Of a stretch of DNA of 64,000 nucleotides, positions 10,853-45,181 are shown piece after piece. The notes beneath the pieces were generated by a model that had not been told where the DNA came from, did not search any database, and was given only the letters and a program-made list of their open reading frames with translations. The position numbers were made by a program, and so were the translations under genes. Location: the NCBI GenBank assembly GCA_963667535.2, contig CAXXDU010000002.1:655243-719242 (forward strand), in the 5' to 3' direction. Each line of letters opens with the position of its first letter. The first letter of the stretch is position 1. This stretch comes from Candidatus Cloacimonadaceae bacterium (GTDB taxonomy: Bacteria > Cloacimonadota > Cloacimonadia > Cloacimonadales > Cloacimonadaceae).

Positions 10853-11567
10853 TATATTTATAATTGCTAAAAAGGAAATGAGAACTTACCTCAATTCTGT
10901 TTCCACCTATATAGTGTTCGTCGTTTTTCTGCTTATAAGTGGCTGGTTCTTTTCCACTCTGATGTTCAAAGCCGGGAAAGCAGAGCTGAGACAGCTTTTT
11001 ACGATTTTACATATGGTTTACCTATTCTTTATTCCTGCTTTAACTATGGGTATGGTGGCAAAAGAAAAGGCAAGTAAGACGATTGAATTGCTTGCCACAC
11101 TTCCGATTAAATTAAGGGCAATAGTCTGGGGTAAATTTGCTGCTGCCGTTGGGTTGCTTGTCATGATATTGCTTTTCACATTAGTACATTTGTTAACTGT
11201 GATGGTAATCGGTGAGAATATTGATTTCGGTTCAATCCTTTGCGGATATCTGGGTTTGACACTAATCGGAGCAGCATATTGTGCAATCGGGATTTTTGCT
11301 TCAACCTTACAAGGTAATCAGATTTTGGCTTTTATCATCGGATTTGTCATATCACTCTTCTTTTTTGTTCTTCAGTACATTATTGTGCTGATACCAACCT
11401 CACTTGCAGGATTCTTTCAGATTCTGAGCTTTGATTATCATTTACAGAATTTTCTCAGAGGTGTAATCGATACACGAGATGTAATCTATCTGGGTTCAAT
11501 CATTGTTGGCTTTATGCTCCTGGCGGAATTTATTTTGAAACTGAACAACAGGATGCAGGAGCGCTAA
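10845..11567 (+). CDS. gldF: ABC-2 type permease, GldF-like
   Basis: 240 aa with 6 hydrophobic segments. 8-nt overlap with the ATPase gene. Confidence 0.7.
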   Translation: MRDIFIIAKKEMRTYLNSVSTYIVFVVFLLISGWFFSTLMFKAGKAELRQLFTILHMVYLFFIPALTMGMVAKEKASKTIELLATLPIKLRAIVWGKFAAAVGLLVMILLFTLVHLLTVMVIGENIDFGSILCGYLGLTLIGAAYCAIGIFASTLQGNQILAFIIGFVISLFFFVLQYIIVLIPTSLAGFFQILSFDYHLQNFLRGVIDTRDVIYLGSIIVGFMLLAEFILKLNNRMQER

Positions 11568-11568
11568 G

Positions 11569-13272: not shown

Positions 13273-14237
13273 AGAAAAGCCATTGGATAACCCTGATTGT
13301 GGTGGTTCTATTGGTTGGGATATACTTTATTGCCAGAAACAAACAGCCTGTAGAAAGGGAATTACGTTTCTTCAAAGCAGATTCATCTGCAATTGGAAAG
13401 CTTGAATTTATCACTACTGAAGATACTGTCATCGTTCAGAAGAAGGGAAATAGCTGGCAATTGACTTACCCACTGGTATGGGATGTAAGCGAACAGCAGC
13501 TAAGTTCCTTTTTTAGCCAGATTTTGCCAATCCAAACTTCCACGACTCCGATGTCAGAAGACAAGAATCTGCAAAGGATGTATAAAGTAGATGAAGCAGG
13601 AGCTGTGCAGGTTAAAACATATGATAAATCAGGAAAACTCATTGACCATGTCTATATAGGCAATGGGACTGAAACATCTTTTGATTATGGCAGAAAACAG
13701 GGAGATAACAAAATCTACCAATTCAAGACTAATATTACCAATGTAGTTAACCCTGATATATTTCAATGGCGCTCTCCCAATATCACCAATCTCAAGTTTC
13801 AGCAAATTGACCATATTAATGTCGAATATACTAAAAATGCATATACTCTTACTACCGTTGGTGACAGCATCAGATATACTGATAAAAAAGAGAGCTTTAT
13901 GATTCCCATCTACAACAGAGCTCAGTACAAGATCGTCAATGCTCTGGAAAACCTGATGACCTGGCAATTTATGGATAAAGATACTGAACAATATGCTAAA
14001 GCATTTCAAAATCCTGATTGCAGGATAACGGTATATCTGAAAAACAAAAGTACTAAGACTTTTTCTCTGATACATGTAAAAACTGCAGTCACTGAAATTC
14101 TTCCCAACGGACAGCCGAATGATGTGATAATTCTCATGATGATAGATAACAAACTCACTCCTCTTTACCAAATGACGGGGGATTTTATTAACAGGTTCAC
14201 TCGTTCTGCCAATCATTTTAAAGTAGAAAATGAATAA
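13269..14237 (+). CDS. DUF4340-like membrane-anchored protein
   Basis: N-terminal TM. 4-nt overlap with the gldG-like gene, the usual DUF4340 position. Confidence 0.5.
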   Translation: MKKSHWITLIVVVLLVGIYFIARNKQPVERELRFFKADSSAIGKLEFITTEDTVIVQKKGNSWQLTYPLVWDVSEQQLSSFFSQILPIQTSTTPMSEDKNLQRMYKVDEAGAVQVKTYDKSGKLIDHVYIGNGTETSFDYGRKQGDNKIYQFKTNITNVVNPDIFQWRSPNITNLKFQQIDHINVEYTKNAYTLTTVGDSIRYTDKKESFMIPIYNRAQYKIVNALENLMTWQFMDKDTEQYAKAFQNPDCRITVYLKNKSTKTFSLIHVKTAVTEILPNGQPNDVIILMMIDNKLTPLYQMTGDFINRFTRSANHFKVENE

Positions 14238-16979: not shown

Positions 16980-17036
16980 ACTCAGATTAGATAAATACCT
17001 GATGTAGAATTCCCACATAAGGAGTTGATAGACACT

Positions 17037-20786: not shown

Positions 20787-21198
20787 GCTTCCACCTGTAG
20801 GTAAATTTATGCATTTGAGTATTCAGAATATCTATATTCTCTTATCTGTCAATGAATTTAAACTACTCAATCTTTGCTGTATGTGTCTTGCCAATCAGCA
20901 CTTCAACTCTCTTCCAAACATTGTTTATGAAGCATTGCAAAAGATAGGGTAAAGATGTTTACTAAATATTACACAAGAGGTATTATGAATTGGTAAAAGT
21001 ACTATACTGTTGGTCAATATATCGACCCTAATAGCTCAGATATACGAGAATTTTGAACCAGAACCATAGAATGACGAAATGTGCCAGCTTGCTATTCAAG
21101 TATTTGTCCAAATAGAATCAGATATTTATCTTGCCTTTTTTTAGTACTTTGGTACATTGCATGCATTAACAATACTGAGACATCCAAAGGGAGAAATT

Positions 21199-23772
21199 AT
21201 GCGGAAGTTAATCCTTTTAGCGCTGGCGTTTTTGCCGGTTATTCTGTTTTCAGCTTATATGGAAAACCTGCCTACTCAGGTTACTCAACCGGACGGAACA
21301 ATCCTCAATCTGCTGGCAAGCGGAGATGAATTTGCCAACCGGCTGCATGATGCCAATGGCTATACAATTATCCAGAGTAAGACAGATGGATATTATTATT
21401 ATGCGCAGAAGAACGGGGATGACCTTTTGCCATCTGTCTGGAGGGTCGATAGCACTAATCCTACCGGCAGAAACCTGACACCCAATCTGAATATTTCCGA
21501 AGCTGCTTACAAAGAGAAAGCCAGGCTCAGTAGATTACATGATAATCCTGACGTGCGTACTCCTCAGACAGGTAATGTGAATAATCTCTGTGTGCTTATC
21601 CGTTTTTCTGATCAGACAGAGTTTGACATTCCGCGTTCTGCTTATGAATACAAGTTTAATGCACTAGGCGACAGCGTAAATTCACAACGTAACTACTTTA
21701 GTAAAGTCAGCAACAACCAATTGGATATTTTAACAAGTATTTATCCAGGCAGTGCTTCAGAAACGAATCTCTCCTATATGGATAGTCACCCGAGAGCGTA
21801 TTATATGCCTTACAATTCTGTTACTAACCCCATCGGCTATACTGATGAAAACAGTTACGAACGGGAACAGATACTGTTGTCGAATGCAATCAATGCCATA
21901 TCTCCTCAGATTCCCACTTCTTTAAATATCGATGCTGATAATGACAATTGGGTTGATAATGTCTGCTTTATAATCAGAGGACCGCACACAGCCTGGGCTG
22001 ATTTGCTCTGGGGACATTTCTCAGGTTTTTATTATAGTGAAACCTACATCAATGGAAAGCAGGTCGGTGGTTATACCTTCCAGACTGAAGACCAAAATGA
22101 AGTCAGAACCTTGTGTCACGAGATGTTTCATTCCATCGGTTCTCCTGATCTTTATCACTATAACTTTAACGGAGTTGCACCAGTGGGAAGCTGGGACATT
22201 ATGGATTGCGGAAAAGGTCACATGGGCTCTTATATGAAATGGGCTTATGGTGGATGGTTACCTTTTATTGAAGAAATCTGGGCAACAGGAGATTATACTC
22301 TGTCCCCGATTTCCAGTGAAACCGGAGTAAATTGCTATAAAATTAACGTTACAGGGCATCCGAATGAATTCTTCGTTCTGGAATACAGAAAGAAAGGCAG
22401 TGATTACTTTGAACAGTTCGTACCTGATTCAGGGCTTCTGATTTATCGTATCTACACTCCCGAAACCGGTAATGCTGAGGGACCACCCGATGAGGTTTAT
22501 CTATACCGTCCCAATGGAACTTCTTTAATCAATGGACAGGTAGTAGAAGCTGCCTTTAGCCAGAATAACTACAGAACTGAATTTAACGATTATACAAATC
22601 CCAATAGCGTCTGGACTAATAACACACTGGCACATCTGAATATCAGCAATATCAGCTACTGTGGTGAAACCATATCCTTTCATTATGCAAATAACAGCAC
22701 AAATCTGCCACCTCTGGTTAACATCACTTCTCCAACTGACGGAGCTGTGCTTCCTGCCGGGACTCTGAATCTTACCGCTACAGCCTCTGCACAAAATGCT
22801 ACAATTACCAGTGTAGTATTCTATATGGATGAAAACTTTCTGGGTGAAGACAACGAAGCACCATATTCTTTAACCTGGACTGACAGCACAGGAACACCGG
22901 GTTATCATGAACTGATTGTGACTGCCACTGCCAGCAACGGCTTGTATGTATCAAAGCATTCACGTTTCAGAATCATAGACACAATGCAGCCTAACTGGTT
23001 TACCTGGACCACTGATACCCCATTCTATGAGCCATACGGACGCGGGTTTTTACCTATTCAGGTGGCAGTTGATTTGGATTTGGGTTTGGAAGAATATGTG
23101 GCTAAAAAACTTGCTTTTTACATAACTGACGACCCTTATGGTGACCCAACTGTTCCGGGCATGGTATCTGCAACCATAAACCGCTTTTCCAATGGCATCA
23201 TCACATCTGAAGTACTGCTGGATATTGGAGAAATCATGTGCCCTATGGATGGCAGATTTGAAATGGATATTTATAATCCCACCATTTTGAACAACCAGAT
23301 AGCAGTGGTAATCAATCTCTTTGAATATCAGAATATCATGTTTGATATGAATGGTATTTCCGGACATAGCTGGCTGACAGAGCCATTACGCCCCTGGACT
23401 GATGCTTTGGGCAGAGGTATGATTGGAGCAGCCGAGATTGCACTTCAATTGCAGAATCCTTATGTCGGAACAGAAGACCCTGTTACTACAGTACCTCAAC
23501 TAAAACTAACTAATTTTCCCAATCCCTTCAATCCCAGTACCACATTATCTTATAATCTACCCAAAGACGGGAATGCCAGTCTGGTGATTTACAATCTGAA
23601 AGGACAAAAGGTGAAAACGCTTCTGAACGGAAAACAAACCAAAGGGAATCATGAATTTACCTGGAAAGGCACAGATGATAATGGCAATACAGTGGGAAGC
23701 GGAATTTATTTAGTAAGGTTGTTAACCAATGGTAAAGCTCGCATGACGAGGAAGATGGTACTCAGTAAATAG
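21199..23772 (+). CDS. M6-family-like zinc metalloprotease with Ig-like domain and T9SS sorting domain
   Basis: HEMFHSIGSPDLYH (HExxH). N-terminal QPDGTILNLLASGDEFANRLHDANGYTII resembles the M6 metalloprotease domain. C-terminus FPNPFNPSTTLSYNL...LVIYNLKGQKVKTL...SGIYLVRL. Start at ATG 21199 after AAAGGGAG. Confidence 0.75.
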   Translation: MRKLILLALAFLPVILFSAYMENLPTQVTQPDGTILNLLASGDEFANRLHDANGYTIIQSKTDGYYYYAQKNGDDLLPSVWRVDSTNPTGRNLTPNLNISEAAYKEKARLSRLHDNPDVRTPQTGNVNNLCVLIRFSDQTEFDIPRSAYEYKFNALGDSVNSQRNYFSKVSNNQLDILTSIYPGSASETNLSYMDSHPRAYYMPYNSVTNPIGYTDENSYEREQILLSNAINAISPQIPTSLNIDADNDNWVDNVCFIIRGPHTAWADLLWGHFSGFYYSETYINGKQVGGYTFQTEDQNEVRTLCHEMFHSIGSPDLYHYNFNGVAPVGSWDIMDCGKGHMGSYMKWAYGGWLPFIEEIWATGDYTLSPISSETGVNCYKINVTGHPNEFFVLEYRKKGSDYFEQFVPDSGLLIYRIYTPETGNAEGPPDEVYLYRPNGTSLINGQVVEAAFSQNNYRTEFNDYTNPNSVWTNNTLAHLNISNISYCGETISFHYANNSTNLPPLVNITSPTDGAVLPAGTLNLTATASAQNATITSVVFYMDENFLGEDNEAPYSLTWTDSTGTPGYHELIVTATASNGLYVSKHSRFRIIDTMQPNWFTWTTDTPFYEPYGRGFLPIQVAVDLDLGLEEYVAKKLAFYITDDPYGDPTVPGMVSATINRFSNGIITSEVLLDIGEIMCPMDGRFEMDIYNPTILNNQIAVVINLFEYQNIMFDMNGISGHSWLTEPLRPWTDALGRGMIGAAEIALQLQNPYVGTEDPVTTVPQLKLTNFPNPFNPSTTLSYNLPKDGNASLVIYNLKGQKVKTLLNGKQTKGNHEFTWKGTDDNGNTVGSGIYLVRLLTNGKARMTRKMVLSK

Positions 23773-29340: not shown

Positions 29341-32300
29341 TTATAGTTTCGACCATTCCGGGAATTCCTCATTGTTTAGGATGTTGTCAACAATATCCGA
29401 TAAATACTCTGGGATCTCTAGAGAGTTACTTTGTTTTGCTTTTTTGATTTTCTCAGCAGTAGTTTTTGCTAATGACCTTAATTCAGGATGACCAAGGGCT
29501 AGCTTGATATGGTCACCATAATGGTCTTTCCCATATGTTTGTTTAATTCTCTGTATTACTTCTGATTTCCAGTTTTCAAGGATACTTTTACATACACCTA
29601 TAATTATTGTGGGTTTTGATAGGTAACAGTATAAAGTGCATGTAATATTGCAGCGATTTCTACTATTCCAGTTGCGAATATTATCTAAGCTGCAAGATTC
29701 CCAACTTTGAATATTGTGAAACGGTATTTTTAGTAAATTAATATATCGTCTAAAAAATAACTTGTCATTGCGACTAGAGTGAAAATCATCAAATATTTTA
29801 TCAACAATTTCTATAATAAAATCAGGATATTTATCCTCTGATCCATAACAGCTAAGTGAGGTATATACTAATGGCCATGGCTCCATTTGCCAGTTATTAA
29901 GATAATGATCTGCGCTACTTCTCTTTATATGAATATCATCCGCAACAACTAATGCAGATAGTACTACAACTTGTGGTACCACATTATAGAAATTAGGTAC
30001 TGCAAGTACTTCATTAGCTTTAGATTTCCCAAAATTGTTGTCCTTTAAGATATTTAGTGCTGTTGACACAACATCTTGACGTAATTTAACATAGAAATCA
30101 GGTACTGAAAGTACTTCATAAGCCTTAGTTTCAACTATTTCGTCATCTTTTACAATGCTCAATGCTGTCGTCACTATACCAGGAGCAATTCTATTATAGA
30201 ATTCTGGTACCGAAAGAATTTCGTTAGCTTTAACTTTCCCGTTGTCACTATCTTTTACAATGTTCAATGCTGTTGCTACAATATCATTACGAATTTTTAA
30301 ATAGAATTCTGAAACTGCAAGTACTTCATTAGCTTTAACTATTCCTATGTCATCATCTTTTACAATGTTCATTGCTGTCGCAACGATATCATTAGAAATT
30401 TCAGAATAGAATTCTGAAACTGATAGGATATCATTAACTTTAGCTTTCACACTGTCATTATTTTTTAAAATATTCAATGCTGTTGTCACAATATCAGGTG
30501 GGATTTTATAAAAGAATTCTGATACCGAAAGGACTTCATTAGCCTTTACTTTTCCAATGTCATCATCTTTAACAATGTTCAATGTAGTGGTGACGATATC
30601 ATTACGTATTTTTATGTAGAATTCTGATACCGAAAGGATTTCAATAGCCTTTGCTTTTCCAATGTCATCATTTTTTACTATGTTCAATGCAGTCGTAACT
30701 ATATCATTATGTATCTTTATGTAGAATTCTGATACCGAAAGGACTTCAACAGCCTTTGCTTTCCCAACTTCATCATCTTTTACAGTGTTCAATGCTATGG
30801 TTACAATTTCATTTGGTACCTTGTTAAAAAATTCCATTTTCGAAAGTATATTGATAGAATCTTTTCTTATTTCACCAGTAACACACATTTTTACATATCT
30901 TCTCCACAGGACTGGATGATATATATTCACACTATTAAGGACTGCGATATATTTGTATATTTCAATTGCAGTTAAGCCAAGCTTGGGCAAATAAGACAAA
31001 TAATGCGGAACAGTATTTTTTTTATTATAAAATAATTCATCAATATATGCCCGCCTTTCTTTATTATCATTAAATAACTGGGTTTCATATTCAAGGAATG
31101 TTTTCAAAACTATTGATGCTGAGTACTCATCTCCAATATTTGTAATTAAGTTTAACAGCTTCTTCTTTATGATATCAGAATACGGTTGCCAATCATCTAA
31201 TTCAACTTTTGAGAGAACCCGTTCTGCCAAGATGTCATGATTAAAATGAACAAGGCTAATATTGAGGAATTGCTTGTCATTACTATCAAAATTACTTAAA
31301 TTTATGTAACGCTTAAGAATGCTTAATGCTTCATCATCAAAATCCCAATTATGAAAATAGGTGCTTATCTCACTATTACCATTAAAGAAATCTGCAATTT
31401 TTAAAAAAGTGTCATAACTTATAAATATCTTATGATCAGCGTAAACACAACTCCAATAATGCAAGGCTTTTGCGAAACCTAATAATGCACTCTCTATAGA
31501 TTGATATTTTGTCATTTGCTTAAAATCATATCTAGCTATTTTTCTAACTGTGTTTTCTAGACTGTTTAGATCTATTTCATTATAATCAATGCGATTTTCA
31601 TTTACTCCCACTATAGCAAATAGAATAAGAAATAGAGATGTATGATAGCTACTACGATCTTTTAAAACTCTATCTGAAGCATCCTTCCATTCTGGATAGT
31701 TTTCAAGTATTTGCTCAATTATTTTTTGATTTTCACTTTCCATTAGTTCGAATATGTTATCCCGATTGTATAAATAAAGCAGATAGCTTTTTCCAGATAT
31801 ATCTCTATCACCAATCACCAATCTCATATTACTAATGGACTGCGATTGTTTCAACAGAGCTTCGCCCAAAAATTTATTGTCAATTCCGACAAGTCTATAC
31901 CAATCTTCAACGAAAACCAAATATTTATTATCAATATCAGATTGAATTATATTTAATGAGTTATCTAAAAACATGCTAAGCTGAAAATCTTGTACCCATA
32001 TTACAACAAAGTCAGATTCTTCAGATAGCTCTATAGCCAATCTACGTAATAATGTGGATTTACCACAGCCACCAGTTCCATATACTATAGCAGCAACTTT
32101 GTCTATTGTGTATTTGTCGAAAGCCTTTAACACTTCAAGCTTCAATTTAGGGTATAAACCCCTTCCAATATCAAAGTTATTTAAAACTCCAAACCATTGG
32201 CAGTTATCATCTTGTTTAGCTGAATAAAACTTAGCTTTGGTAAATTGTGTCCCGTTTTTAATCTTATCCATAAACCCATGGTCAATGGTAAGTGCGCCAG

Positions 32301-33156
32301 CAAGGTTTATTTCGATGATTTTATTCCGGTTATCTTTTAGAAACTGAAGGAATAACTCAGTTCCTAACTTTCCATTATTATCTTCGAGTTTTATAAAAGT
32401 ATAATCGTTATTATAAAACTCGGGTTTTTCTTTTACATCATCATTATATAAATCAAAATGGAATATTTTGATATTATTTCTTTTTAATCCTGCAAAGAAT
32501 TTGGAAAAAACTACCTGTTCGTTGAACTGAGTTCCGACAATGATTAAATTTTTTCCACTGTCATTTACGTTACCATAAAGTACATTAAAGCAATTGTGCA
32601 TGCTATTGTATAACTTTCCATAAGATGAAGACGTAAATACGATTTGGTCAATTGATTGAAATCCATCTATGGTTCCATGAATATGGTAAATGCAGCTTTC
32701 ATGCTCACCTGTTGATTTATCTGGATATGATATAATTGGATACTTTATAGTTCGAGACTTATCTTTTATTACTTCTAAAACATTATCGAAATTAAAAGTA
32801 AAAATATTGTACCAATTGGGAGTCAATAAATTTGCATACAGTAGATAATTAAATTTGCTTTTGTCTACTTTAAAAAGATTACAAAATGCCACTAATAAGC
32901 TGCTGTCATCTCTGATTAATCTTTCCCAGATTGCAGCGGCAGCTTCGTATGTCTCTACCTTTTTTTTGAACTTATCGTTTGTATGCGATACAAATTGCTT
33001 CGATGTCGGGATTGACTCAAATTCGGTACTTTGATTTTGAATACCATAACTGAATCCAGCACCCAAAATGAGGATGTATTCACCCTTTTTTAATCCTTCG
33101 AAGAAATCGGCATCACTAGCTAATTCTAACAGGGTTTTTTCTTTAATTCCGATCAT
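29341..33156 (-). CDS. SIR2-like domain, P-loop NTPase and 9 x 35-aa repeat protein (candidate STAND-type antiviral NADase)
   Basis: SIR2_2-type motifs in order: ILILGAGFSYG (aa 27-37), FTFNFDNVLE (119-128), IYHIHGT (156-162) and LIIVGTQFNEQ (204-214). Walker A GTGGCGKST (aa 360-368, nt 32053-32079) and Walker-B-like LVFVEDW (413-419). Tandem repeats at aa 771-1085. The gene is markedly AT-rich. Confidence 0.8.
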   Translation of the reverse strand: MIGIKEKTLLELASDADFFEGLKKGEYILILGAGFSYGIQNQSTEFESIPTSKQFVSHTNDKFKKKVETYEAAAAIWERLIRDDSSLLVAFCNLFKVDKSKFNYLLYANLLTPNWYNIFTFNFDNVLEVIKDKSRTIKYPIISYPDKSTGEHESCIYHIHGTIDGFQSIDQIVFTSSSYGKLYNSMHNCFNVLYGNVNDSGKNLIIVGTQFNEQVVFSKFFAGLKRNNIKIFHFDLYNDDVKEKPEFYNNDYTFIKLEDNNGKLGTELFLQFLKDNRNKIIEINLAGALTIDHGFMDKIKNGTQFTKAKFYSAKQDDNCQWFGVLNNFDIGRGLYPKLKLEVLKAFDKYTIDKVAAIVYGTGGCGKSTLLRRLAIELSEESDFVVIWVQDFQLSMFLDNSLNIIQSDIDNKYLVFVEDWYRLVGIDNKFLGEALLKQSQSISNMRLVIGDRDISGKSYLLYLYNRDNIFELMESENQKIIEQILENYPEWKDASDRVLKDRSSYHTSLFLILFAIVGVNENRIDYNEIDLNSLENTVRKIARYDFKQMTKYQSIESALLGFAKALHYWSCVYADHKIFISYDTFLKIADFFNGNSEISTYFHNWDFDDEALSILKRYINLSNFDSNDKQFLNISLVHFNHDILAERVLSKVELDDWQPYSDIIKKKLLNLITNIGDEYSASIVLKTFLEYETQLFNDNKERRAYIDELFYNKKNTVPHYLSYLPKLGLTAIEIYKYIAVLNSVNIYHPVLWRRYVKMCVTGEIRKDSINILSKMEFFNKVPNEIVTIALNTVKDDEVGKAKAVEVLSVSEFYIKIHNDIVTTALNIVKNDDIGKAKAIEILSVSEFYIKIRNDIVTTTLNIVKDDDIGKVKANEVLSVSEFFYKIPPDIVTTALNILKNNDSVKAKVNDILSVSEFYSEISNDIVATAMNIVKDDDIGIVKANEVLAVSEFYLKIRNDIVATALNIVKDSDNGKVKANEILSVPEFYNRIAPGIVTTALSIVKDDEIVETKAYEVLSVPDFYVKLRQDVVSTALNILKDNNFGKSKANEVLAVPNFYNVVPQVVVLSALVVADDIHIKRSSADHYLNNWQMEPWPLVYTSLSCYGSEDKYPDFIIEIVDKIFDDFHSSRNDKLFFRRYINLLKIPFHNIQSWESCSLDNIRNWNSRNRCNITCTLYCYLSKPTIIIGVCKSILENWKSEVIQRIKQTYGKDHYGDHIKLALGHPELRSLAKTTAEKIKKAKQSNSLEIPEYLSDIVDNILNNEEFPEWSKL
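29902..30846 (-). repeat. Nine head-to-tail 105-bp (35-aa) coding repeats
   Basis: Consensus LSVSEFYxKIxNDIVTTALNIVKDDDIGKxKAxEV. Register checked at nt 30741 (repeat 2 start) and nt 29901 (first residue after the array). Confidence 0.95.
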
Positions 33157-33859
33157 GCGAATTTTAGCAATGTGCCATGATTTGATTGTAAACGCGAGTT
33201 AATTTTTGAAAGAAATTAAAATCTGATGTACTTTGTTTGACATCAATTATCATTAGTCAACCTTATATATTTACTTATTAATTCTATAGCAACAAGTATT
33301 CCCATTTTGTCAATCAATTATTCTTGTACTCATTCTCTATACAGGTTAATAACAGCATCACCAATATTGCGCATCTAGTCAAAATAAATTTATAAAAATG
33401 ATGTTCTACTTTTAAAGAAAAGAATAATCATCCTCTCTCCTTATTGCATGATTACTTGCTGTTGGGTAAACGCTGGGACTTTCCCTGGTTACCTGACTAA
33501 GGAAAGTCCAGGCAGTGTACCTTCAATAAGCCAGATTAGCCTAACAGCTTATTAGGTTTATTGAAGAATTATAAATTATCAATTATAAATTATGAATTGG
33601 TTGCTGGTGTCTTTCAATCACGAATTACTAATTAAGAATTACAAATTAACTGAGGTGATAAGGTGATATGGTTGACTCCATAACGTTCCCCTCTTATCTC
33701 TTAAACGATCCGTTGGATATTGGTGAGAGATGTAAGGGGTATATAAGGGCTTTTGCCTTAGATACCCCTTAGAAACCCCTTTGATATCTGTAGGATCTAT
33801 TAACCAATGAATAATTAAGAGAAAAAGTACTACAGACACTCATGTCTGTCCGTGGAAAA

Positions 33860-34168
33860 ATGTAGTTCTGCCTTCAGGCAGGTTTATAGACTTAGACATC
33901 GATATATATGATTCAGACCTGCATAAAAAGGTTGTGTGAAAAAGCCAAAGGAAGAGCATTGCCGGAGTTCAATTTGCCCTCTTTAGCTTTCAGCATGCAT
34001 CTTTGTGTTTGGGCAAATCGGACTTCGGAATGCGTTATCTGTAAAGGTTTTAGCTGAAGTCCGAAATTCCCTTTTACCTTCCTTACTATATTTCAAATGA
34101 CGAGGGAATTTTGAACTCCAGCTATTCGCTTATTCATTTTCGCACAGTCTCTAAATGCAGAACTACAT
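33860..34168. repeat. 309-bp element with 12-nt terminal inverted repeats (REPIN/MITE-like)
   Basis: ATGTAGTTCTGC at 33860-33871 and its reverse complement at 34157-34168. Partial second copy at 3411-3557. Confidence 0.7.
33964..34119. other. Predicted perfect four-way junction (cloverleaf-like) of unknown function
   Basis: Helix A 33964-33972/34111-34119, B 33973-33979/34011-34017, C 34019-34026/34056-34063, D 34064-34071/34104-34111. Loops of 31, 29 and 32 nt, with 0-1 unpaired nt at the junction. Confidence 0.55.
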
Positions 34169-34643
34169 ATTCTTCGTATAATATAAGTAATCAGTCTTAC
34201 TATTATCTTAGTAGCCCCTTGGTAGATGATTACTACTTTTAGTAAGCATCTACCAGGAGAGTATTCATATATAAGCAGTTACGATTACTTGTAGTTTTAA
34301 GTGGAAAGGTGGAACAGTGGAACGATGTCTGTATCACAGAAGACACGGAAAAGAAAGCTAGCCAATTCATAATTTGCACCTTCGTTGCTTGTTTCCTGCT
34401 TATTCAATCCGCAGGAGCAAGGGCAGAGATACACGGCTCATATACGGGTCGCACCCGTAGATGAGCCGTTTATCACCAGTGCATCTCTTGTGTATCCTAT
34501 AAGGAATGAATTAGTAATCTAAGAGAATGAAATGGTCTTGCTACTCTTTCTGTAAATTAGATACATCGGTAAAGAGAAAATCCTTGACTCTATTGAACAT
34601 AGATTAATTAAGTAAAATCGAATATTGTCCATGAGAGGAATTT

Positions 34644-35117
34644 ATGAAATCAGGCTGGATTGTACTTTTGCTCTTATTATTAGTTACCTCTTTGTCTGCT
34701 CTTACTATTGATGAACTAATTGACATTACTTTGAGTGTGAGTGAATTTGGGCACCTTGGAGAACAAAAGTGTTTGGTTTCCAGTCAAATTAATCTGGAGG
34801 AGCTACCCACTGAGGAAGAAGCATTAGCATACCTAACGGAGGTTGGTGGACTACTCGCGGTTATTTATCAAAATCCTGAGGCTTATAAAATGACTTCCAA
34901 CTCAGAGCGTTTAAAAGATATACCCTTTGTATGTTGCCCTTATTCTTCCTATGATTACAAATTCTTAGCCTGCATCAATATGGGTGAACTTCGTTACAAT
35001 TTATTGATAAATCCAAAAAAGGATGAAAATACCCCGGCACGTTATAACCAAAATTATGAATTTGTGAAGAAATGGCACACTACATTATTGATGTCCGCAT
35101 ATACGCCGGATGAATAA
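34644..35117 (+). CDS. Small secreted protein, paralogue of 38948-39424
   Basis: Signal peptide MKSGWIVLLLLLLVTSLSA after GAGAGGA. Shares ...YL.(E/D).G...A(I/V)..N...YK.T...E......CPY...D....A.I......Y with the second copy. Confidence 0.55.
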   Translation: MKSGWIVLLLLLLVTSLSALTIDELIDITLSVSEFGHLGEQKCLVSSQINLEELPTEEEALAYLTEVGGLLAVIYQNPEAYKMTSNSERLKDIPFVCCPYSSYDYKFLACINMGELRYNLLINPKKDENTPARYNQNYEFVKKWHTTLLMSAYTPDE

Positions 35118-35328: not shown

Positions 35329-36456
35329 TTATTCAAATATCCGGAGATATGCTCCGAATTTGTAAACTCTTTTCCAGTTCTTGCCGGTCATTTCTTCCAG
35401 AATACCCAATTTCTGAAAGTCATTGATTAAACCATAAGCAGATACGAGAGACAGAGAGGTAATTTCTGAAACATCAGCAGGGGTAACAACCGGCTTACTG
35501 AATAAGTAATTAAGCAGTTTCTGACCTGAGAGTAATTTTTTTCCCAGATTTGGCAATAACTCTGATTCGCAGATTTTCTTCAATTCCAGAATGTTTTTTA
35601 TGCCGTCTATAGCTTTTTGACAGGTTTGACTCACACCGATTAAGAAAAAAGCCAGCCAGCCATGCAAATCCTGAGCTGTTCTGGTTCTATTCAAATAGTC
35701 ATAGTATAGAGCCCGATTGGTTTCGAAATACTCTGATAAATACAAGGCAGGCTTGTTTATCAATCCATCGGAAATGAGATATAAAACAATCATTAATCTA
35801 CCGATTCTTCCGTTTCCATCCAGGAAAGGATGGATAGTTTCGAACTGGTAATGAGCAATGGCAATCTTGATTAAATGTGATAGACCGGTTTTTTCATTAT
35901 GCAGAAACTTTTCCAAATCACTCATCAGTCTTTCAACTTCATAACCCGGAGGTGGTACAAACATAGCGGTTTTAATAGTTGAGCCGCCAATCCAATTCTG
36001 GCTTTTACGATATTCTCCGGGGTTTTTATGCTCGCCTCTGACCCCTTGCAAAAGTATTCCGTGAGCATTTCTCAATAATCTGGTGGATAGAGGCAAAGTG
36101 CGAAGCATATTTATACTCTCATTCATCGCTTGTATATAGTTTTGAACTTCCTTCCAGTCGTCACGACGTTCAAAAGCAATGTTCATTTCCGATAGCATAG
36201 CTTCTTCCATGTTAGTTTTTGTGCCTTCGATTTTGCTGGACAACGTAGCTTCTTTAACTACGTGTAACATGATAAAGTGGTCAATATCGGGAACCAACTC
36301 ACTATAAGCCTTTAGCTCTCCCAGCTTGAGATTTGCAGTCTCATTTAATTGCATCAGTTCAGCATTCTCAAACCTGTAACAACGGTTTATTGTATTAGGT
36401 GTAAATGCTTGATAATCATCGATTTTAACATACTTGCCTGCATTGAAATCCTTCAT
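35329..36456 (-). CDS. Fic-family protein (class II, intramolecular inhibitory helix)
   Basis: Fic motif HPFLDGNGRIGR (aa 209-220, nt 35797-35832). N-terminal inhibitory motif SSKIEG ((S/T)xxxE(G/N)). C-terminal wHTH-like tail. Confidence 0.9.
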   Translation of the reverse strand: MKDFNAGKYVKIDDYQAFTPNTINRCYRFENAELMQLNETANLKLGELKAYSELVPDIDHFIMLHVVKEATLSSKIEGTKTNMEEAMLSEMNIAFERRDDWKEVQNYIQAMNESINMLRTLPLSTRLLRNAHGILLQGVRGEHKNPGEYRKSQNWIGGSTIKTAMFVPPPGYEVERLMSDLEKFLHNEKTGLSHLIKIAIAHYQFETIHPFLDGNGRIGRLMIVLYLISDGLINKPALYLSEYFETNRALYYDYLNRTRTAQDLHGWLAFFLIGVSQTCQKAIDGIKNILELKKICESELLPNLGKKLLSGQKLLNYLFSKPVVTPADVSEITSLSLVSAYGLINDFQKLGILEEMTGKNWKRVYKFGAYLRIFE

Positions 36457-36691: not shown

Positions 36692-38524
36692 TTACTTCAT
36701 CAGCAGCATTTTCCTGGTGATATTGATGTTCTTGCCCTGCATTTGGTACAGATAGATACCGGGGCTGACGTTCTTATCATGCTTATCTTTCCCGTTCCAG
36801 GTTGCATTATAGTGTCCGGCTGCTTTCATTTCATTGACGAGTGTTTTAACCAATTGTCCTTTCAGGTTATAGATATTGATGGTTACAGGCTGGTTTTCTT
36901 TAACGTCGTAAGCAATACTGGTTTCCCGATGGAACGGATTGGGATAGTTATTGAGCAGTTCTGAGCTGATGGCAGGAACTTCGGTTGGATTACTGACGCC
37001 ATCGATAAAATGGAAAGTGGTCTTGGGCATAGACTGATAAGCATGGTCCAGTGCAGGTGGCGAAGCGGGGTTAATGTCGTCGGTACTTCTGCCTGCTAAC
37101 AAAGAGCTATTATAGTCTGCCGAAGTCAATCCAAAGAATAAATTATTAGGACTATGTCCTGTATCAGACCCAGGCTTATACACCATTACGACTAAGTTTT
37201 GTCCTGAATAAGTAAACGGTGTGTCTAATGGTATGCAAATTACATGCTCTCCTGCCAGATAATTTACCGTACCATCAAAGACCTGAGTAAGCTGAGTGGA
37301 TGGTATCCAGGTAACAGGTAAACTATCCAGAACTGTGGTTCCCATCCAAATCCGGGTAGGCACATCAAAGACATTACCCCAGAAATGATTATAATATGAA
37401 ATGGCATTAATAGTGCCCAAATGATTAATTGCTGAAGCACGATACAGGATTTCTCCAAGACTTGAATATTCAAACACTATTGAGGGCTCTACGGTCAATT
37501 GCGTTGAATCAGCGAGAGTAACGGGTGTAGTCGAGGCAGGAAATACTGCCACGCTAATACTGTCTGTCACGTTATTTCCGGGGACTTCATCATTCAAACC
37601 AATAACTTCAGCGCGTAAAAGATGGGTACCGATAGTCGCAGGAGTCCAGGATAAAGAAGCGGTTGCATAGCCATCATTGGCAGCGATAGGAGGTCCTGTC
37701 GTCGTGGCAAGGACATTTGTGCCTTCCATCAGGTTAATTGTGTAATTATCGTCCGGAGCTGTGCCATGATTGTTTACTGTCACAGTTAATGTGCCGGCTT
37801 CATTCTGAACCAGAGATGGCGGACAGTTTATGGACTCTCCAATCAAATCATGAGCAGGTAACTGTGCCGGTAAAAACGAGAAAATCGTGTTTTCCCCCGG
37901 GTAGGTGCTATTACTATTGTAATTGTCAGTGCTGGATACAGTTAATGTGGGCAGCAATCTTACACTCAAATAATTTCCAACGCCTCCGGGCTCCATGTTT
38001 ATCCCGATACTGGCTCCTCTACCGCTGGAATCATCTCCGCCACCCGGTCCGTAACAAAAGTCTATCTGTCCTGATTCATATAATTTTACCTGAAAATCGT
38101 ATGCACTGGTCAAATAAGGATAGATACACCAGTTCATATCTGTGAATTGGACAGTAAATACCCGATTAGGCGCACTACCTGAAAGCACATACATACATTG
38201 AGTTGTAAACCGCCAATTATCCCATAACGGTGCTAGTATAGGATGATATACGTTGAAATTAAGATTATTACTGGAAAGATGATTTAACGCAAGATTGAAA
38301 TAAACGTAGCCGTAATAGCTTATCCTGAGCTGCGTATAGATATTTTCTCCATAATGAAATGGAAAGCCGATATCCACAGGATTGTTGATGGTGTCTACAA
38401 CTGTTCCGTTTATCGGAATATATGTTTGTATGCGGGATTGAAAAGTGTAATATTGATTGATATCAGCCGACAACGTCCCACATAACATAATCAAAAACAT
38501 AAGAAAAAGCAGCAATGCTTTCAT
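36692..38524 (-). CDS. Secreted protein with CARDB-like domain and T9SS sorting domain
   Basis: Signal peptide MKALLLFLMFLIMLCGTLSA after GGAGG. CARDB-like GTLTVTVNNHGTAPDDNYTINLMEG. C-terminus YPNPFHRETSIAYDV...INIYNLKGQLVKTL...PGIYLYQM. Confidence 0.8.
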   Translation of the reverse strand: MKALLLFLMFLIMLCGTLSADINQYYTFQSRIQTYIPINGTVVDTINNPVDIGFPFHYGENIYTQLRISYYGYVYFNLALNHLSSNNLNFNVYHPILAPLWDNWRFTTQCMYVLSGSAPNRVFTVQFTDMNWCIYPYLTSAYDFQVKLYESGQIDFCYGPGGGDDSSGRGASIGINMEPGGVGNYLSVRLLPTLTVSSTDNYNSNSTYPGENTIFSFLPAQLPAHDLIGESINCPPSLVQNEAGTLTVTVNNHGTAPDDNYTINLMEGTNVLATTTGPPIAANDGYATASLSWTPATIGTHLLRAEVIGLNDEVPGNNVTDSISVAVFPASTTPVTLADSTQLTVEPSIVFEYSSLGEILYRASAINHLGTINAISYYNHFWGNVFDVPTRIWMGTTVLDSLPVTWIPSTQLTQVFDGTVNYLAGEHVICIPLDTPFTYSGQNLVVMVYKPGSDTGHSPNNLFFGLTSADYNSSLLAGRSTDDINPASPPALDHAYQSMPKTTFHFIDGVSNPTEVPAISSELLNNYPNPFHRETSIAYDVKENQPVTINIYNLKGQLVKTLVNEMKAAGHYNATWNGKDKHDKNVSPGIYLYQMQGKNINITRKMLLMK

Positions 38525-38650
38525 GTGTCCTCCACTATTATAATCCTTCATTTACATTTGAGTTGGATACATATATTCGGAAGATAATACCAGGATAAAT
38601 CAAGATAAATCAAAATATACTGATTATAGATATTCTGTCAAAGTCTTTTT

Positions 38651-38870
38651 GTAGGGACATGCCTTGTGCGTGTCCTTGGTAATAAACTGAAAATGAAAAG
38701 AACCAGGTACAAGTCAGGGATTTAAACAGCATGGATCCCTGCCTGCGCAGGGACGACACCGTTCTACTGTTCCACCGTTTCACCGTTCCACCATTCCACT
38801 GTTCCTCCATTCCACTGTTCCTCCATTCCACCATTCCACTTTTTCGGACAAGCGCAAGGCATGTCCCTAC
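38651..38870. mobile_element. MITE-like 220-bp element with 25-bp terminal inverted repeats
   Basis: GTAGGGACATGCCTTGTGCGTGTCC at 38651-38675 versus GGACAAGCGCAAGGCATGTCCCTAC at 38846-38870 (2 mismatches). The interior carries hairpin 38736-38753 and a ~9 x 8-nt array TCCACYRT at 38762-38840. Confidence 0.6.
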
Positions 38871-38947
38871 AGTTATTGCAAAATATCTTGACTCTTAACG
38901 CCAAAGAATTACATAGTAAATTTAATAATACTGATTGTGAGGACGTA

Positions 38948-39424
38948 ATGAAACCGGTTTTAGTAATGATTCTGTTCCTGATATTGACAACTTTATTAAA
39001 CGCTATTACCTACTCGACTGATGATTGCATTGATTTGGTGATGATGTATGGTCATGCTCAGGACATTCAAGGTGTGCCTTGTTTTGTCTCTCAATATTAT
39101 GACGAATGGGATCTTCCATCCAAAGATTTTGCCATCACATATCTGGCAGATACAGGCTCTGTATTTGCGATAGTCCAGAATAATCTGGATACTTATAAAA
39201 GCACTGATAAAACCGAGGAAATGAAGCTGGTGGAAATCGTGGCTTGCCCCTATTTGGAAAATGATAGAGAATATATGGCTGCGATTGATCTGGACTATAT
39301 CAAGTATGAATTTGGCAGGAGTCAATTAGCGAACCTGACCCAGGACGAGCAGATTGAGTTTTGTGAACGCATTGTCAGAGCACATTGTGTGATACAGGAT
39401 ATTACAATTGACTTAGACGAGTAA
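38948..39424 (+). CDS. Small secreted protein, paralogue of 34644-35117
   Basis: Signal peptide MKPVLVMILFLILTTLLNA after GAGGA. Track start 38861 lies inside the MITE-like element and is rejected. Confidence 0.55.
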   Translation: MKPVLVMILFLILTTLLNAITYSTDDCIDLVMMYGHAQDIQGVPCFVSQYYDEWDLPSKDFAITYLADTGSVFAIVQNNLDTYKSTDKTEEMKLVEIVACPYLENDREYMAAIDLDYIKYEFGRSQLANLTQDEQIEFCERIVRAHCVIQDITIDLDE

Positions 39425-42226: not shown

Positions 42227-42349
42227 CTTTGAAAACCCGATAAATATTTGCAGATAAAATAAAACAATTTGAATATTAGTTTGATTCTCTTTCGGAATGG
42301 TTATTGCTATTTAAATATTTCCTATTCGATTCATATACGGAGGAAAGAA

Positions 42350-45181
42350 ATGGTCAAGCGAAGTATTATTTGGGTTTTAGTTTTGTTTTTCGTAACGGCG
42401 CTCTTTGCAGAAATCGGGACTGCAGAGACGATTTCCGACTTTACCAATTCCATCCAGTTTGGTGGTCGACAGGCTGTTTATGCTAATGGCGATACGATAC
42501 AACTGTGTTATGTAAAACATTTATCAATGTATCCGGTAACTGTCAATGGCGGACACACATATTTTGCTTCATCTTATGATGGGGGTCTGACTTTTCCAAT
42601 TAACAGGACAATTGGTGTTACACCGGATGGCGCACCTACTTTATGCAAAAGCGGACAGACCATCATTGTTACTTTTACCAGCGGTGGGTATTTATTTAGG
42701 GCAGTATCTAATGATAATGGGGTAACTTTTCATTATGAGCCCCCGTATCCTGAGCCGGAATTCCCCAATATTCCCGCCAGTGACAGATTACCCATAACGG
42801 ACATGCATGACGGTGAATTTCACAGCATATATGCCAACAAGGAATACACACCGGATTTTTATAAACTGGAAGAACCCTTTTCACAGTTTTACGGAAGGTT
42901 CACTGCTCATGACAAAACGAGCAATGACACACCTGCCTATTACTGGGGACCGGATGTAATTGAAGGCACTGTCAGAGTCAATGGTGATTTGTGGATTAAA
43001 CAATTGGGTGGAGGCACCAATAACGGCTGGCCCACGTTTAAGGGTCCAGTGTATGTTTCAGGTCAGATTCAATCATACAGCGGCACTCCGCCTTATTTGC
43101 AGGTATTCCGGGGAGATTATTTGGAACATGTTCCGGAAGTAGCGTTAAATCCGGAAATCACGCCAGCTAATATAACAACAATCGGACCGGCTGATAATGA
43201 CCCCAACCGGATCATGATGGTAACCGTTAATGGAAATTCTTATACAACCATGATTGGACAAATATTAACCACCGGAGTAGATACATTGTGGGTTTATACA
43301 GATTATCCTACCACAAGCGGAACACCACTTTATGCAAACGTTGTGCCGCATGTGGATACACTTTGGACAGTAGGTCCGGCAGGTGTTTGCAGTAATAACA
43401 CCATGAAGGTGAATTCCACACTTTGGATAAAGGGTAATTTCAGTGGTAAACAGGTATGGTATTCATCGGATAATGTATATCTGATTGATGATATCACGTT
43501 AAGCGGTACACCGGTGGGAGATTGTCCTGACGGCACTGTTTCCGTAAGCAGTTATAATGCCTTTGATAAAGTGGCTATTGTCTCCGGCAAAAACATCATC
43601 ATCAAATATGGTTACAAAGACCCGGTTACGAATATCAGAATGAAACCAAACTGCAATGATATCTGGATTTATGCCAGCCTTTATGCATTGGGAGAAGGTA
43701 ATGGAAATGTTCATGAAGATGGAGTCTTCACTTTTGAGTATCAGCATCCGCATCCCTCTGTTCCCGCTGTGACAATGGCTGATTCGCTCTTTGATAATAT
43801 CGATATGCATAGAAGACCTTTCCCTCAAACCGGTATAAGTCCCTGGCCCGGCAATATTGACTATCCCTATTACAATCCACTCTGGCCGGAAGGAAATCCA
43901 ACCATGGAGCGTGGTACAGTGCACGTTTGGGGCTCCATTACCCAGCGCAGACGCGGATTTATGCACAGAGGTTTAGCTGATGCAGATTACCCCAATCCAG
44001 TCGGTTCATGGAATCCTGCCATTGATTATTGTGGAGGTCCTGCCGGAAATGCTTACGCCGACCCTGTCTTGAATACCGTTTTTACTCCGGTAAACGCTGC
44101 CGGTGCTACCGGAGCAGGCGTAGGCTATAATAAGGATATCCACTTCGATTCCAGAATCAGAAGCGAAACCTTCGGTTTTAACCCCTGGAATTTTGGATTA
44201 ACGGTCGCCTATATCACAGAAACCGGAACCTGGCAGACGGAAACTGTAAAGTATGATAACATCGATATGGTAACCAAAGCTTATAACCGCAAAAATGCCC
44301 ATACCCTCTTCTCCGTTAATGACAGATTGTATCAGTATCAGAATAACGTGATTTCTGATTTCCCAATCCTGAATGAGCCTAAAGGCAATATCGTTCAGCT
44401 CAATCATCTGGATACAGAACATGCTTTGATTCAGATGCACGATAAAGACATAAATTTCTATAATTATTTAACAGCAACTCCGGATTCTATTCACGTGTTT
44501 TGCTTAGATTTGGATAATGGAGTGGCAGCTCCGGTTCTGGATAGCTATGTGCCTACGGAAATGAATGATATTGCTGTTTTGAATAATGGCTTAAAGATAT
44601 ATGCCCAAACCAATGACCTTGATGAAGTGGTCTTCTATTCAATCAATAGCAACAACCAAATGAGCCAGTTGTATACCTGGAATCCCAATCAACCTGCTCT
44701 GAATGGGGCAACTTACAATTTTTCCAGAGCAAGGCTGCATATCGTTCCTTCGGGGATTGATTCCTTTTATGTGTTTATCTGGGTGCCCTTTAATGTACTC
44801 AATAATCCCCTGCTCCCTATTTTAACTAATGGCACCATGTATATGGCGCGGGGTTCTTTAGCCAATACCGGCATTGACGATGATCAGTTGGTATCCATCC
44901 CTGAGCTGATACCATCAGTTTTCATTAGCCCCAATCCGTTCAGAAGCCTTACAACCCTTGCTGTAAATCTGCCCAAAAACAGTAATCTGGATATGAAAAT
45001 CTATAACATCAAAGGTGAACTGATTAAATCCTTCAAAAATGAATATAAGAACCTGGGAACGCATAAGCTGACCTGGGATGGAAGAGACAATCAAGGCAAG
45101 GCTGTATCCTCCGGTATTTACTATTACCGTTGCGAAACAGACAATAATCATCTGACGGGGAAAATGGTGTTGCTCAAATAA
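42350..45181 (+). CDS. Large secreted protein of unknown function with T9SS sorting domain
   Basis: Start ATG 42350 after GGAGG with signal peptide MVKRSIIWVLVLFFVTALFA. C-terminus ISPNPFRSLTTLAVNL...MKIYNIKGELIKSF...SGIYYYRC. Confidence 0.75.
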   Translation: MVKRSIIWVLVLFFVTALFAEIGTAETISDFTNSIQFGGRQAVYANGDTIQLCYVKHLSMYPVTVNGGHTYFASSYDGGLTFPINRTIGVTPDGAPTLCKSGQTIIVTFTSGGYLFRAVSNDNGVTFHYEPPYPEPEFPNIPASDRLPITDMHDGEFHSIYANKEYTPDFYKLEEPFSQFYGRFTAHDKTSNDTPAYYWGPDVIEGTVRVNGDLWIKQLGGGTNNGWPTFKGPVYVSGQIQSYSGTPPYLQVFRGDYLEHVPEVALNPEITPANITTIGPADNDPNRIMMVTVNGNSYTTMIGQILTTGVDTLWVYTDYPTTSGTPLYANVVPHVDTLWTVGPAGVCSNNTMKVNSTLWIKGNFSGKQVWYSSDNVYLIDDITLSGTPVGDCPDGTVSVSSYNAFDKVAIVSGKNIIIKYGYKDPVTNIRMKPNCNDIWIYASLYALGEGNGNVHEDGVFTFEYQHPHPSVPAVTMADSLFDNIDMHRRPFPQTGISPWPGNIDYPYYNPLWPEGNPTMERGTVHVWGSITQRRRGFMHRGLADADYPNPVGSWNPAIDYCGGPAGNAYADPVLNTVFTPVNAAGATGAGVGYNKDIHFDSRIRSETFGFNPWNFGLTVAYITETGTWQTETVKYDNIDMVTKAYNRKNAHTLFSVNDRLYQYQNNVISDFPILNEPKGNIVQLNHLDTEHALIQMHDKDINFYNYLTATPDSIHVFCLDLDNGVAAPVLDSYVPTEMNDIAVLNNGLKIYAQTNDLDEVVFYSINSNNQMSQLYTWNPNQPALNGATYNFSRARLHIVPSGIDSFYVFIWVPFNVLNNPLLPILTNGTMYMARGSLANTGIDDDQLVSIPELIPSVFISPNPFRSLTTLAVNLPKNSNLDMKIYNIKGELIKSFKNEYKNLGTHKLTWDGRDNQGKAVSSGIYYYRCETDNNHLTGKMVLLK

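Follow-up and report, generated by a model that had tools for sequence, protein, structure and literature searches.

The DNA analysed here, referred to as the window, comprises 64,000 nucleotides of contig CAXXDU010000002.1 (positions 655,243 to 719,242) in the assembly GCA_963667535.2 of a Candidatus Cloacimonadaceae bacterium. The subject of the analysis is one gene of this window, a candidate antiviral sensor gene called the SIR2–STAND gene in the following, whose product carries a SIR2 domain, a STAND nucleotide-binding module, probably of the nSTAND5 type, an array of tandem repeats and a conserved tail, in this order (Table 1). It is the longest open reading frame (ORF) of the 64-kb window, with 1271 amino acids (970 for the runner-up), and the limits and length given for it in the original prediction were recovered as an intact ORF on the minus strand. 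An identical protein (P0001) was found to be already deposited in NCBI/ENA/Logan by a word-indexed search of 5.8 billion proteins.

The G+C content of the gene is 0.316, versus 0.404 for the rest of the window, and the 1-kb bins over 29-33 kb are the four lowest among 64, so that the AT-richness relative to the neighbours claimed earlier is borne out. For the downstream gene on the same strand, the most plausible start is an ATG at 29077, preceded by an AAGGAG ribosome-binding site (RBS) and by a TTGACA box of its own; given this start, the spacer between the two genes is about 263 bp. Because of this spacer and of the downstream gene's own RBS and TTGACA box, the SIR2–STAND gene fits a monocistronic unit, as had been proposed from 266 bp of non-coding DNA on the 3' side and 1.5 kb on the 5' side; the former figure compares with the 263 bp or so obtained here, and the latter corresponds to an AT-rich stretch of 1487 bp in which no ORF longer than 66 amino acids was found. 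The promoter must be located within this stretch, although promoter-like sites were not in significant excess in a promoter-site scan. A terminator was not detected on the minus strand, which qualifies the monocistronic reading, and a look for island boundaries around 28-36.5 kb revealed neither flanking direct repeats nor a tRNA or an integrase. An Rfam scan reported no family at threshold in the window, and the matches in the upstream stretch were at chance level.

The upstream stretch also contains an element of about 138 nt (33919-34056) that recurs at 3419-3557 with 90% identity, both copies being intergenic; a partial inverted copy lies at about 34103-34168. On the + strand it is predicted to form a long hairpin (-43.3 kcal/mol, z -2.8) and has no Rfam match. 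It could be an element similar to a miniature inverted-repeat transposable element (MITE) or a repetitive extragenic palindromic (REP) sequence, or a small RNA.

Table 1. Position of the SIR2–STAND gene, of its domains and of adjoining features in the window (aa, amino acids)
Feature	Residues (aa)	Position in window	Strand	Basis
Complete SIR2–nSTAND5–repeat–tail gene	1-1271	29341..33156	-	ORF list; ATG start, 1271 aa plus stop codon
SIR2_2 domain (predicted effector)	1-285	32302..33156	-	Pfam PF13289, invariant residues, 9v0g_E alignment, AlphaFold2, Foldseek
Conserved linker before NTPase, FY..KQ..CQWxG motif	286-345	32122..32301	-	24-sequence alignment
STAND nucleotide-binding domain	346-472	31741..32121	-	Pfam nSTAND_NTPase5, invariant residues, AlphaFold2 strand order
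STAND helical and winged-helix domains	473-650	31207..31740	-	AlphaFold2 secondary structure, motif invariance, Foldseek
Solenoid start before the regular repeats	651-770	30847..31206	-	AlphaFold2 models
Nine tandem repeats of 35 aa (105 nt)	771-1085	29902..30846	-	Tandem Repeats Finder, alignment, AlphaFold2, Foldseek
Conserved C-terminal domain (186 aa)	1086-1271	29344..29901	-	Family alignments; C-terminal in nearly all full-length hits
ORF-free AT-rich stretch upstream of the gene		33157..34643	.	1487 bp; holds 138-nt repeated hairpin element
Fic-family gene matching SoFic		35329..36456	-	PADLOC SoFic E 6.9e-113, profile 5-358 of 361; Pfam Fic_N and Fic

Domain architecture of the protein

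The SIR2-family profile search proposed with the original prediction gave a significant match: SIR2_2 (PF13289) aligned to residues 118-224 with 36.8 bits (gathering cut-off 24.5), and homologues scored 32-39 bits. The key residues of the domain are the GAGFS motif (32-36), N122, D124, H160 and Q210; G32, G34, S36, N122, D124, H160 and Q210 are invariant in 14 SIR2-bearing homologues with 30-51% identity. The profile built from the alignment of these 14 homologues matches the solved SIR2 chain 9v0g_E, in which LGAGFS pairs with GAGFS, TTNYD with TxNFD and FHG with HlHG. The Asn (N122) and His (H160) proposed as catalytic thus align with the TTNYD and FHG motifs of a solved chain, and so occupy the canonical positions. 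As read from the translation, the SIR2 region contains only three cysteines, all isolated, and lacks a CxxC zinc module, in agreement with SIR2 domains of the defence type, which are not known to carry this module. Its fold in the AlphaFold2 model is Rossmann-type. The motif positions announced for both enzymatic domains are correct (FTFNFDNVLE at 119-128, IYHIHGT at 156-162, LIIVGTQFNEQ at 204-214, GTGGCGKST at 360-368 and LVFVEDW at 413-419), with the exception of ILILGAGFSYG, which lies at residues 28-38 and not 27-37.

Between the SIR2 and the nucleotide-binding domains, the linker has five invariant columns in the 24-sequence alignment (F310, Y311, Q320, W321 and G323), and is presumed to be the positional counterpart of the FISNA-like segment of EfAvs5. 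The nucleotide-binding domain (NBD) that follows contains a Walker A motif (G360-T368, with K366), a Walker B motif (LVFVED, 413-418, with E417/D418) and, after strand 4, R445 and G449-D450-R451. The residues G360-T368, E417, D418, R421, R445, G449, D450 and R451 are invariant in the 14 SIR2-bearing homologues, and Walker A, Walker B, R445/R451 and the FNHD motif described below are conserved across the 24 sequences. nSTAND_NTPase5 (PF25199) aligned to residues 319-427 with 32.2 bits (cut-off 34), and scored 37-64 bits in homologues; the precomputed annotation of the identical database protein carries both SIR2_2 and PF25199.2, the latter at E<=1e-5. Besides these two families, the Pfam scan returned generic P-loop matches only, with no match past residue 470, and nSTAND3 (PF20720) had no match at E<=1. 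No match was obtained in an NCBIfam scan or in a sequence search of the PDB, and PADLOC 2.0 reported only a weak P-loop match.

What had been noted as a helical region of about 350 amino acids after the NTPase is in fact composed of the STAND helical domain, a winged helix with a beta hairpin (618-638), and the start of a solenoid. Directly after the wing hairpin stands an FNHD motif (638-641), in which F638, N639 and D641 show no variation and H640 almost none. In plant nucleotide-binding leucine-rich repeat receptors (NLRs), the MHD motif holds ADP in the off state; from its position, FNHD may be placed in the same way.

The AlphaFold2 model of residues 1-770 (24 sequences; pLDDT 88.1, pTM 0.84) consists of the SIR2 domain, a five-stranded P-loop domain, the helical domain, the winged helix and the first helices of the solenoid. 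When this model was compared with the PDB using Foldseek, the top match was the Avs5 (AVAST5) filament 9nc9 (E 3e-15, about 820 aligned columns), followed by human SAMD9 (E 2.6e-13), DSR2 and ThsA (about 1e-7), and Cdc6; the alignments with Avs5 and SAMD9 span the model from one end to the other. The structural check suggested earlier therefore yielded the nucleotide-binding, helical and winged-helix parts of a STAND protein, with Avs5 and SAMD9 as top matches.

The model of residues 700-1271 (pLDDT 90.7) is an ARM/HEAT-like solenoid. Its Foldseek matches in the PDB are AP2 adaptin, beta-catenin, designed ARM proteins and PPR10 (E 1e-4 to 1e-3), without Avs5 or SAMD9 among the top 50, and a comparison with viral models gave nothing significant, generic solenoids only. 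The regular part of the solenoid is made of nine units with an exact period of 35 amino acids and no indels, detected by Tandem Repeats Finder with a score of 670, far beyond chance (period 105, 6.9 copies, 77% matches). The earlier description of nine exact repeats holds for their number and period; the units themselves are not identical, their pairwise identity being 20-83% for amino acids (mean 53%) and 46-89% for nucleotides, with degenerate first and last copies. In the model, each unit comprises one short helix and then two more, of 10 and 11 residues, which is an ARM/HEAT-like three-helix arrangement. The sensor repeat, which had been called unclassified, is indeed without Pfam match, but it forms an ordinary ARM/HEAT-like alpha-solenoid, the usual class of STAND sensors.

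The repeats evolve under purifying selection, with a ratio of nonsynonymous to synonymous divergence (dN/dS) of 0.22 overall and of 0.11 at scaffold positions; even at repeat positions that had been selected, post hoc, for their variability, it was 0.5. Repeats 2 and 3 form the only close pair (89% nucleotide identity). A recent expansion or positive selection of the repeats, as in fungal NLRs, was considered and rejected, dS being about 1 (saturated) and dN/dS 0.22. Among relatives the number of copies varies from 0 to 9, with a period usually of 34 amino acids, and the tail is conserved.

This tail shows conserved positions W1152, IL1192-3, W1196 and E1199 and the motif GDHIxxALGHPxL (with H1216, H1223 and P1224); W1152 is invariant, and H1216, H1223 and P1224 nearly so, in the 14 SIR2-bearing homologues. 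The last 186 residues are modelled as helical, with one small hairpin at GDHIxxALGHP. A profile of the domain (27 sequences) had no match in the PDB, and for its members Pfam returned only scattered chance matches; as far as sequence comparison goes, the domain thus appears to be without known relatives outside the nSTAND5-chassis family.

Relatives, exchanged N-termini and genomic context

The word-indexed search returned 27 relatives, the identical protein included, and an exhaustive phmmer search with residues 760-1271 against 1.84 billion representatives returned 162 clusters at E<=1e-3, in which the tail is at the extreme C-terminus of nearly all full-length hits. In a scan of one genome per species, the source genome of the window not being among them, 23 loci were found in 185,579 species, in Flavobacterium, Chryseobacterium, Winogradskyella, Chitinophagaceae, Bacteroidales and other Bacteroidota, and also in Pyrinomonadaceae, Cloacimonadota and Vulcanimicrobiota metagenome-assembled genomes (MAGs). 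No tblastn match was found in 50,697 phage records or 72,556 plasmid records. From the 23 loci, the 162 clusters and the lack of matches in the phage and plasmid collections, the family is rare and patchy. Its closest homologue in the genome collection, with 51% identity, lies in a Pyrinomonadaceae MAG (L002, 10001-13762), where it appears split into two ORFs (10001-10894 and 11317-13638), through disruption of the copy or through an assembly error.

Relatives sharing the chassis were collected using hidden Markov models (HMMs) built from the nSTAND5 family and phmmer with the C-terminal 512 amino acids. As delimited by the family HMMs, the NTPase, the helical/winged-helix region, the repeat array and the tail are common to the relatives, and the N-terminal domain is swapped. 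About two dozen sequences have a SIR2 N-terminus, and 58 others have complete N-termini without SIR2. The commonest after SIR2 is a domain of about 180 amino acids without Pfam match (22 clusters, e.g. P0139, P0021 and P0058), whose position suggests an uncharacterised effector. Then come an Mrr-like restriction endonuclease (a cluster of 14 and a similar singleton, only the singleton reaching the Pfam cut-off), caspase C14 (3), Trypsin_2 (2), PRTase-CE (2), short hydrophobic, membrane-like N-termini (2, read from the sequences) and an OmpR-type Trans_reg_C domain (1), the remaining singletons being without assigned family. N-termini that are swapped, and mostly cell-killing, on a constant sensor–switch chassis are considered a signature of immune STANDs (Lee et al. 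2026), and SIR2, restriction endonuclease, caspase, trypsin and PRTase-CE are all found here on one chassis, in line with the effector criterion of that study.

The Fic-family gene that matches SoFic (Table 1) is 2.2 kb from the SIR2–STAND gene, within a common low-G+C tract, and the two may form a small defence islet. Its other surroundings in the window comprise a GntR–ABC operon, a gene for a small membrane protein and genes whose products have sorting domains of the type IX secretion system (T9SS) type. Neither the downstream 119-aa membrane ORF, nor a 157-aa ORF, nor SoFic or GntR was found at any homologue locus; since no window neighbour recurs there, the SIR2–STAND gene behaves as a self-contained module.

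The Pfam-annotated homologue loci have varied surroundings: a restriction-modification system of the MmeI type, AbiTii and an integrase (P0008); a CHAT protease, an integrase fragment, a Y1 transposase, MazE/PemK and RHH/ParE (P0011); HEPN and GmrSD (P0007); S_4TM, NYN, AAA_15/21 and NOV_C (P0009); S_4TM overlapping the 3' end of the gene (P0006); and no defence genes seen at P0002, P0014 and P0019. At 12 further genome loci (±6 kb), the commonest neighbours are the coupling protein of type IV secretion systems (T4SS), relaxase, MobC and NikA, from which many copies are taken to be cargo of conjugative or mobilisable elements. The G+C content of the gene is below that of its flanks at 12 of these 12 loci.

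An S_4TM gene (PF18159, 285 aa) overlaps the 3' end of two SIR2–nSTAND5 homologue genes (P0006 and P0009), and S_4TM homologues with 55-67% identity also follow other SIR2-containing genes (L018-L021); the window contains no S_4TM gene. Such S_4TM genes lie at L030 (12885-13742) and at the P0009 locus. In some relatives, SIR2–nSTAND5 and S_4TM may thus represent a two-gene variant.

Comparison with known systems and proposed function

Like the Avs5 proteins (EfAvs5, EcAvs5, PaAvs5), the SIR2–STAND protein is one polypeptide with an N-terminal SIR2_2 domain, a STAND nucleotide-binding oligomerisation domain (NOD) and, at the C-terminus, a sensor of alpha-helical repeats, and the spacing of N122, K366, D418 and R445 parallels that of N141, K379, D426 and R453 in EfAvs5. 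In the latter, N141 (SIR2), K379 (Walker A), D426 (Walker B) and the C-terminal sensor are all needed for defence, mutation of R453 (in a 'TTR' motif) abolishes defence, ATP is held between the NBD and the winged helix, and NAD+ hydrolysis is activated when a phage protein triggers the formation of filaments (Avs5 paper). A jumbo-phage protein is sensed by PaAvs5 homologues, which deplete NAD+; Avs5, whose NADase activity has been demonstrated by experiment, has phage proteins such as T7 gp1.7 and jumbo-phage JADA as triggers. The Avs5 clades carry nSTAND3 (PF20720), whereas the Pfam match here is to nSTAND5, under the cut-off for the window protein and above it in homologues; the Avs5 sensor is short and SAMD9-like, whereas the present one has about 620 amino acids, with ARM-like repeats of 34/35 amino acids and the 186-aa family-specific domain; and Avs5 is from Proteobacteria, in contrast to the Bacteroidota, Cloacimonadota and Acidobacteriota that host the present family. 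Judged by its sequence, on which PADLOC is silent, the protein does not appear to be a member of Avs5 and would belong to another STAND clade.

Human SAMD9/SAMD9L and the bacterial, SAMD9-like Avs6 and Avs9 are antiviral proteins that likewise combine a SIR2-like domain, a STAND P-loop NTPase and helical repeats. SAMD9 and Avs9 have an AlbA_2 nuclease effector with SAM and OB domains, and Avs6 a PNP domain, none of which (AlbA_2, SAM, OB, PNP) was found in the SIR2–STAND protein by the Pfam scan. DSR2 and ThsA share the SIR2_2-type NADase fold, and DSR2 also the association of SIR2 with a long helical-repeat sensor; unlike the present protein, both are without STAND NTPase, so that the presence of this domain excludes a DSR2 layout. 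ThsA furthermore contains a SLOG domain and depends on the TIR protein ThsB; the Pfam scan found no SLOG domain in the SIR2–STAND protein and neither TIR nor HerA among the scanned window neighbours. A census of 2026 distinguished 589 STAND clades, nSTAND clades included, and 684 sensor clusters (Lee et al. 2026). The suggestion that the family may be undescribed was therefore only partly right and overstated, PF25199 being a curated family and SIR2 with STAND the known layout of Avs5.

Taken together, the gene probably encodes a single-gene, NLR-like sensor of the Avs type that would deplete NAD+ and cause abortive infection, with a predicted SIR2 NAD+ hydrolase as effector. The domain make-up, the conservation of catalytic and nucleotide-binding residues and the fold likeness to Avs5, SAMD9, DSR2 and ThsA are observed; for enzymatic activity on NAD+, the kind of trigger, the state of oligomerisation and an abortive outcome of infection, the reading proceeds by analogy. 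The candidate antiviral STAND-type NADase of the original prediction is in this respect supported by the SIR2_2 profile, the modelled STAND fold and the defence and mobile-element genes near homologues, and each refuting condition named with it that was open to computation came out in its favour. By analogy with Avs5, the following mechanism is proposed. At rest, the protein would be autoinhibited, its nucleotide-binding module being in the off state. The ARM/HEAT-like solenoid and the conserved terminal domain would bind a phage-derived trigger, most likely a protein, which would free an ATP-dependent switch formed by the NBD, helical and winged-helix domains and lead to oligomerisation. The N-terminal SIR2 domains would thereby be gathered and NAD+ hydrolysis turned on, and the depletion of NAD+ would halt both the infected cell and the phage.

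Several results weigh against this reading. The nSTAND5 score of the window protein is 1.8 bits under the curated Pfam cut-off, and no mention of nSTAND5 was found in the literature searched. The PADLOC models, including that of Avs5, miss the protein, and HMMER finds no similarity to the Avs5 chains of the PDB (9nc9), even at E 10. Global TM-scores to Avs5 are low (0.29-0.30), and at this value the modelled domain arrangement differs from that of the active Avs5 filament, the match being domain by domain. The context is not uniform, since three of the eight Pfam-annotated homologue loci are without defence genes, and PADLOC run on 134 neighbours at the 12 genome loci returned only generic ATPase and E1-E2 type families. 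As the aggregated output consists of generic families only, this last scan is no measure of enrichment. Proximity to defence or mobile-element genes is seen in the window, with SoFic, and at many homologue loci, as a qualitative observation.

A further-reaching proposal, which we regard as doubtful, is that the nSTAND5 chassis constitutes an Avs family apart, with a sensor and possibly a kind of trigger peculiar to it. Under this joint claim, the chassis would be largely confined to Bacteroidota, Cloacimonadota and Acidobacteriota; the ARM-like array of variable copy number and its invariant His/Trp-rich cap, without counterpart elsewhere, may sense a trigger of a new kind outside the mapped core phage proteins; a conserved ligand or a host factor might be bound by the cap; and S_4TM may, in the relatives with two genes, be linked to the output of SIR2, which would act as a signal generator and not just as an NAD+ sink.

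That the protein is instead a divergent Avs5 member, a remote orthologue with the same trigger logic, seems unlikely. The three-part layout and the residue spacing of EfAvs5 speak for such an orthologue, as do the rank of the Avs5 filament as top structural match over the whole SIR2 and NOD module and weak nSTAND3 matches over the P-loop region of some homologues. The NTPase nevertheless matches nSTAND_NTPase5 in the window protein (1.8 bits under the cut-off) and in its relatives and is nSTAND3 in published Avs5 clades, neither the PADLOC Avs5 model nor HMMER comparison with 9nc9 detects a similarity, and the sensor of about 620 amino acids with its unique tail has no Avs5 or SAMD9 among its top 50 Foldseek matches.

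It is also distinctly unlikely that the output of SIR2, rather than bulk NAD+ depletion, is an NAD-derived signal or the ADP-ribosylation of a target, with a second killer coupled to it (S_4TM in some relatives). The overlap of S_4TM with two SIR2–nSTAND5 homologues and the S_4TM homologues behind SIR2-containing genes at L018-L021 point in this direction. Against it, S_4TM is missing from the window and the homologue loci share no conserved neighbour, killers that suffice by themselves (such as nucleases and proteases) occur on other members of the chassis, and SIR2 degrades NAD+ in pAgo, Thoeris, DSR2 and SIR2-HerA (Avs5 paper).

A non-immune role, for example in regulation or housekeeping as a signalling ATPase whose SIR2 part is a deacylase of the sirtuin type, would be in keeping with the interspersion of defence and non-defence STAND clades in the superfamily (Lee et al. 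2026), with the single relative that has Trans_reg_C instead of an effector, and with several homologue loci that have housekeeping neighbours only. We consider it very unlikely: most identifiable N-termini on the chassis are cell-killing enzymes, the SIR2 domain is of the SIR2_2 family and without CxxC zinc module, the distribution is patchy and rare, and the gene has a low G+C content with respect to its host and relatives that ride on conjugative elements. Finally, an inactive relic of horizontal acquisition, for which the ORF-free upstream 1.5 kb with its repeated element, the lack of a significant excess of promoter-like sites and the apparently split homologue L002 could be invoked, is hardly credible given a 3.8-kb ORF that is intact despite an AT-rich, stop-prone context, the retention of all catalytic and nucleotide-binding residues, and the purifying selection on the repeats.

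The reading as an NAD+-depleting Avs-type sensor bears on a broader subject, antiviral STANDs being the bacterial counterparts of animal and plant NLRs. Among the approximately 90 sensor types of the 2026 census, a minority have known triggers, and the representatives tested are mainly from Enterobacteriaceae (Lee et al. 2026). The SIR2–STAND gene is a clean single-gene representative of its STAND clade (probably nSTAND5) from poorly studied, mostly uncultured lineages, whose effector is readable (a predicted SIR2 NADase) and whose repeat sensor and terminal domain are without precedent at the sequence level. If borne out, the proposed function would extend the SIR2–STAND theme of Avs5 and SAMD9 to a second STAND clade, and could reveal how phages of Bacteroidota and Cloacimonadota are sensed. 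Current understanding would not be overturned, the logic being Avs5-like but carried by another STAND clade, whose sensor is distinctive; the main worth of the gene is as a tractable entry to STAND immunity in bacteria of the Bacteroidota and Cloacimonadota type.

Other features of the window

Two ORFs on the + strand, at 34644-35117 and 38861-39424, are paralogous (28% identity) and without family match; between them lie the SoFic gene and the gene of a protein with T9SS-type sorting domains, and the first has a hydrophobic, signal-peptide-like N-terminus. Large proteins with FlgD_ig and Por_Secre_tail (T9SS-type) sorting domains are encoded at 17025-19253, 21157-23772, 36692-38551 and 42269-45181. 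By eye on the translations, the ORF at 961-2772 resembles an [FeFe]-hydrogenase. The sorting domains hint at a host of the FCB group or similar to Cloacimonadota, and the hydrogenase-like ORF at an anaerobe. Six tandem ORFs of 143-144 amino acids, interrupted by an ORF of 189 amino acids (58063-58632), are found at 55782-60581 on the + strand and may be an array of pilin-type paralogues; they are followed at 60663-63789 by ORFs whose translations resemble, by eye, PilC/GspF and PilB/GspE.

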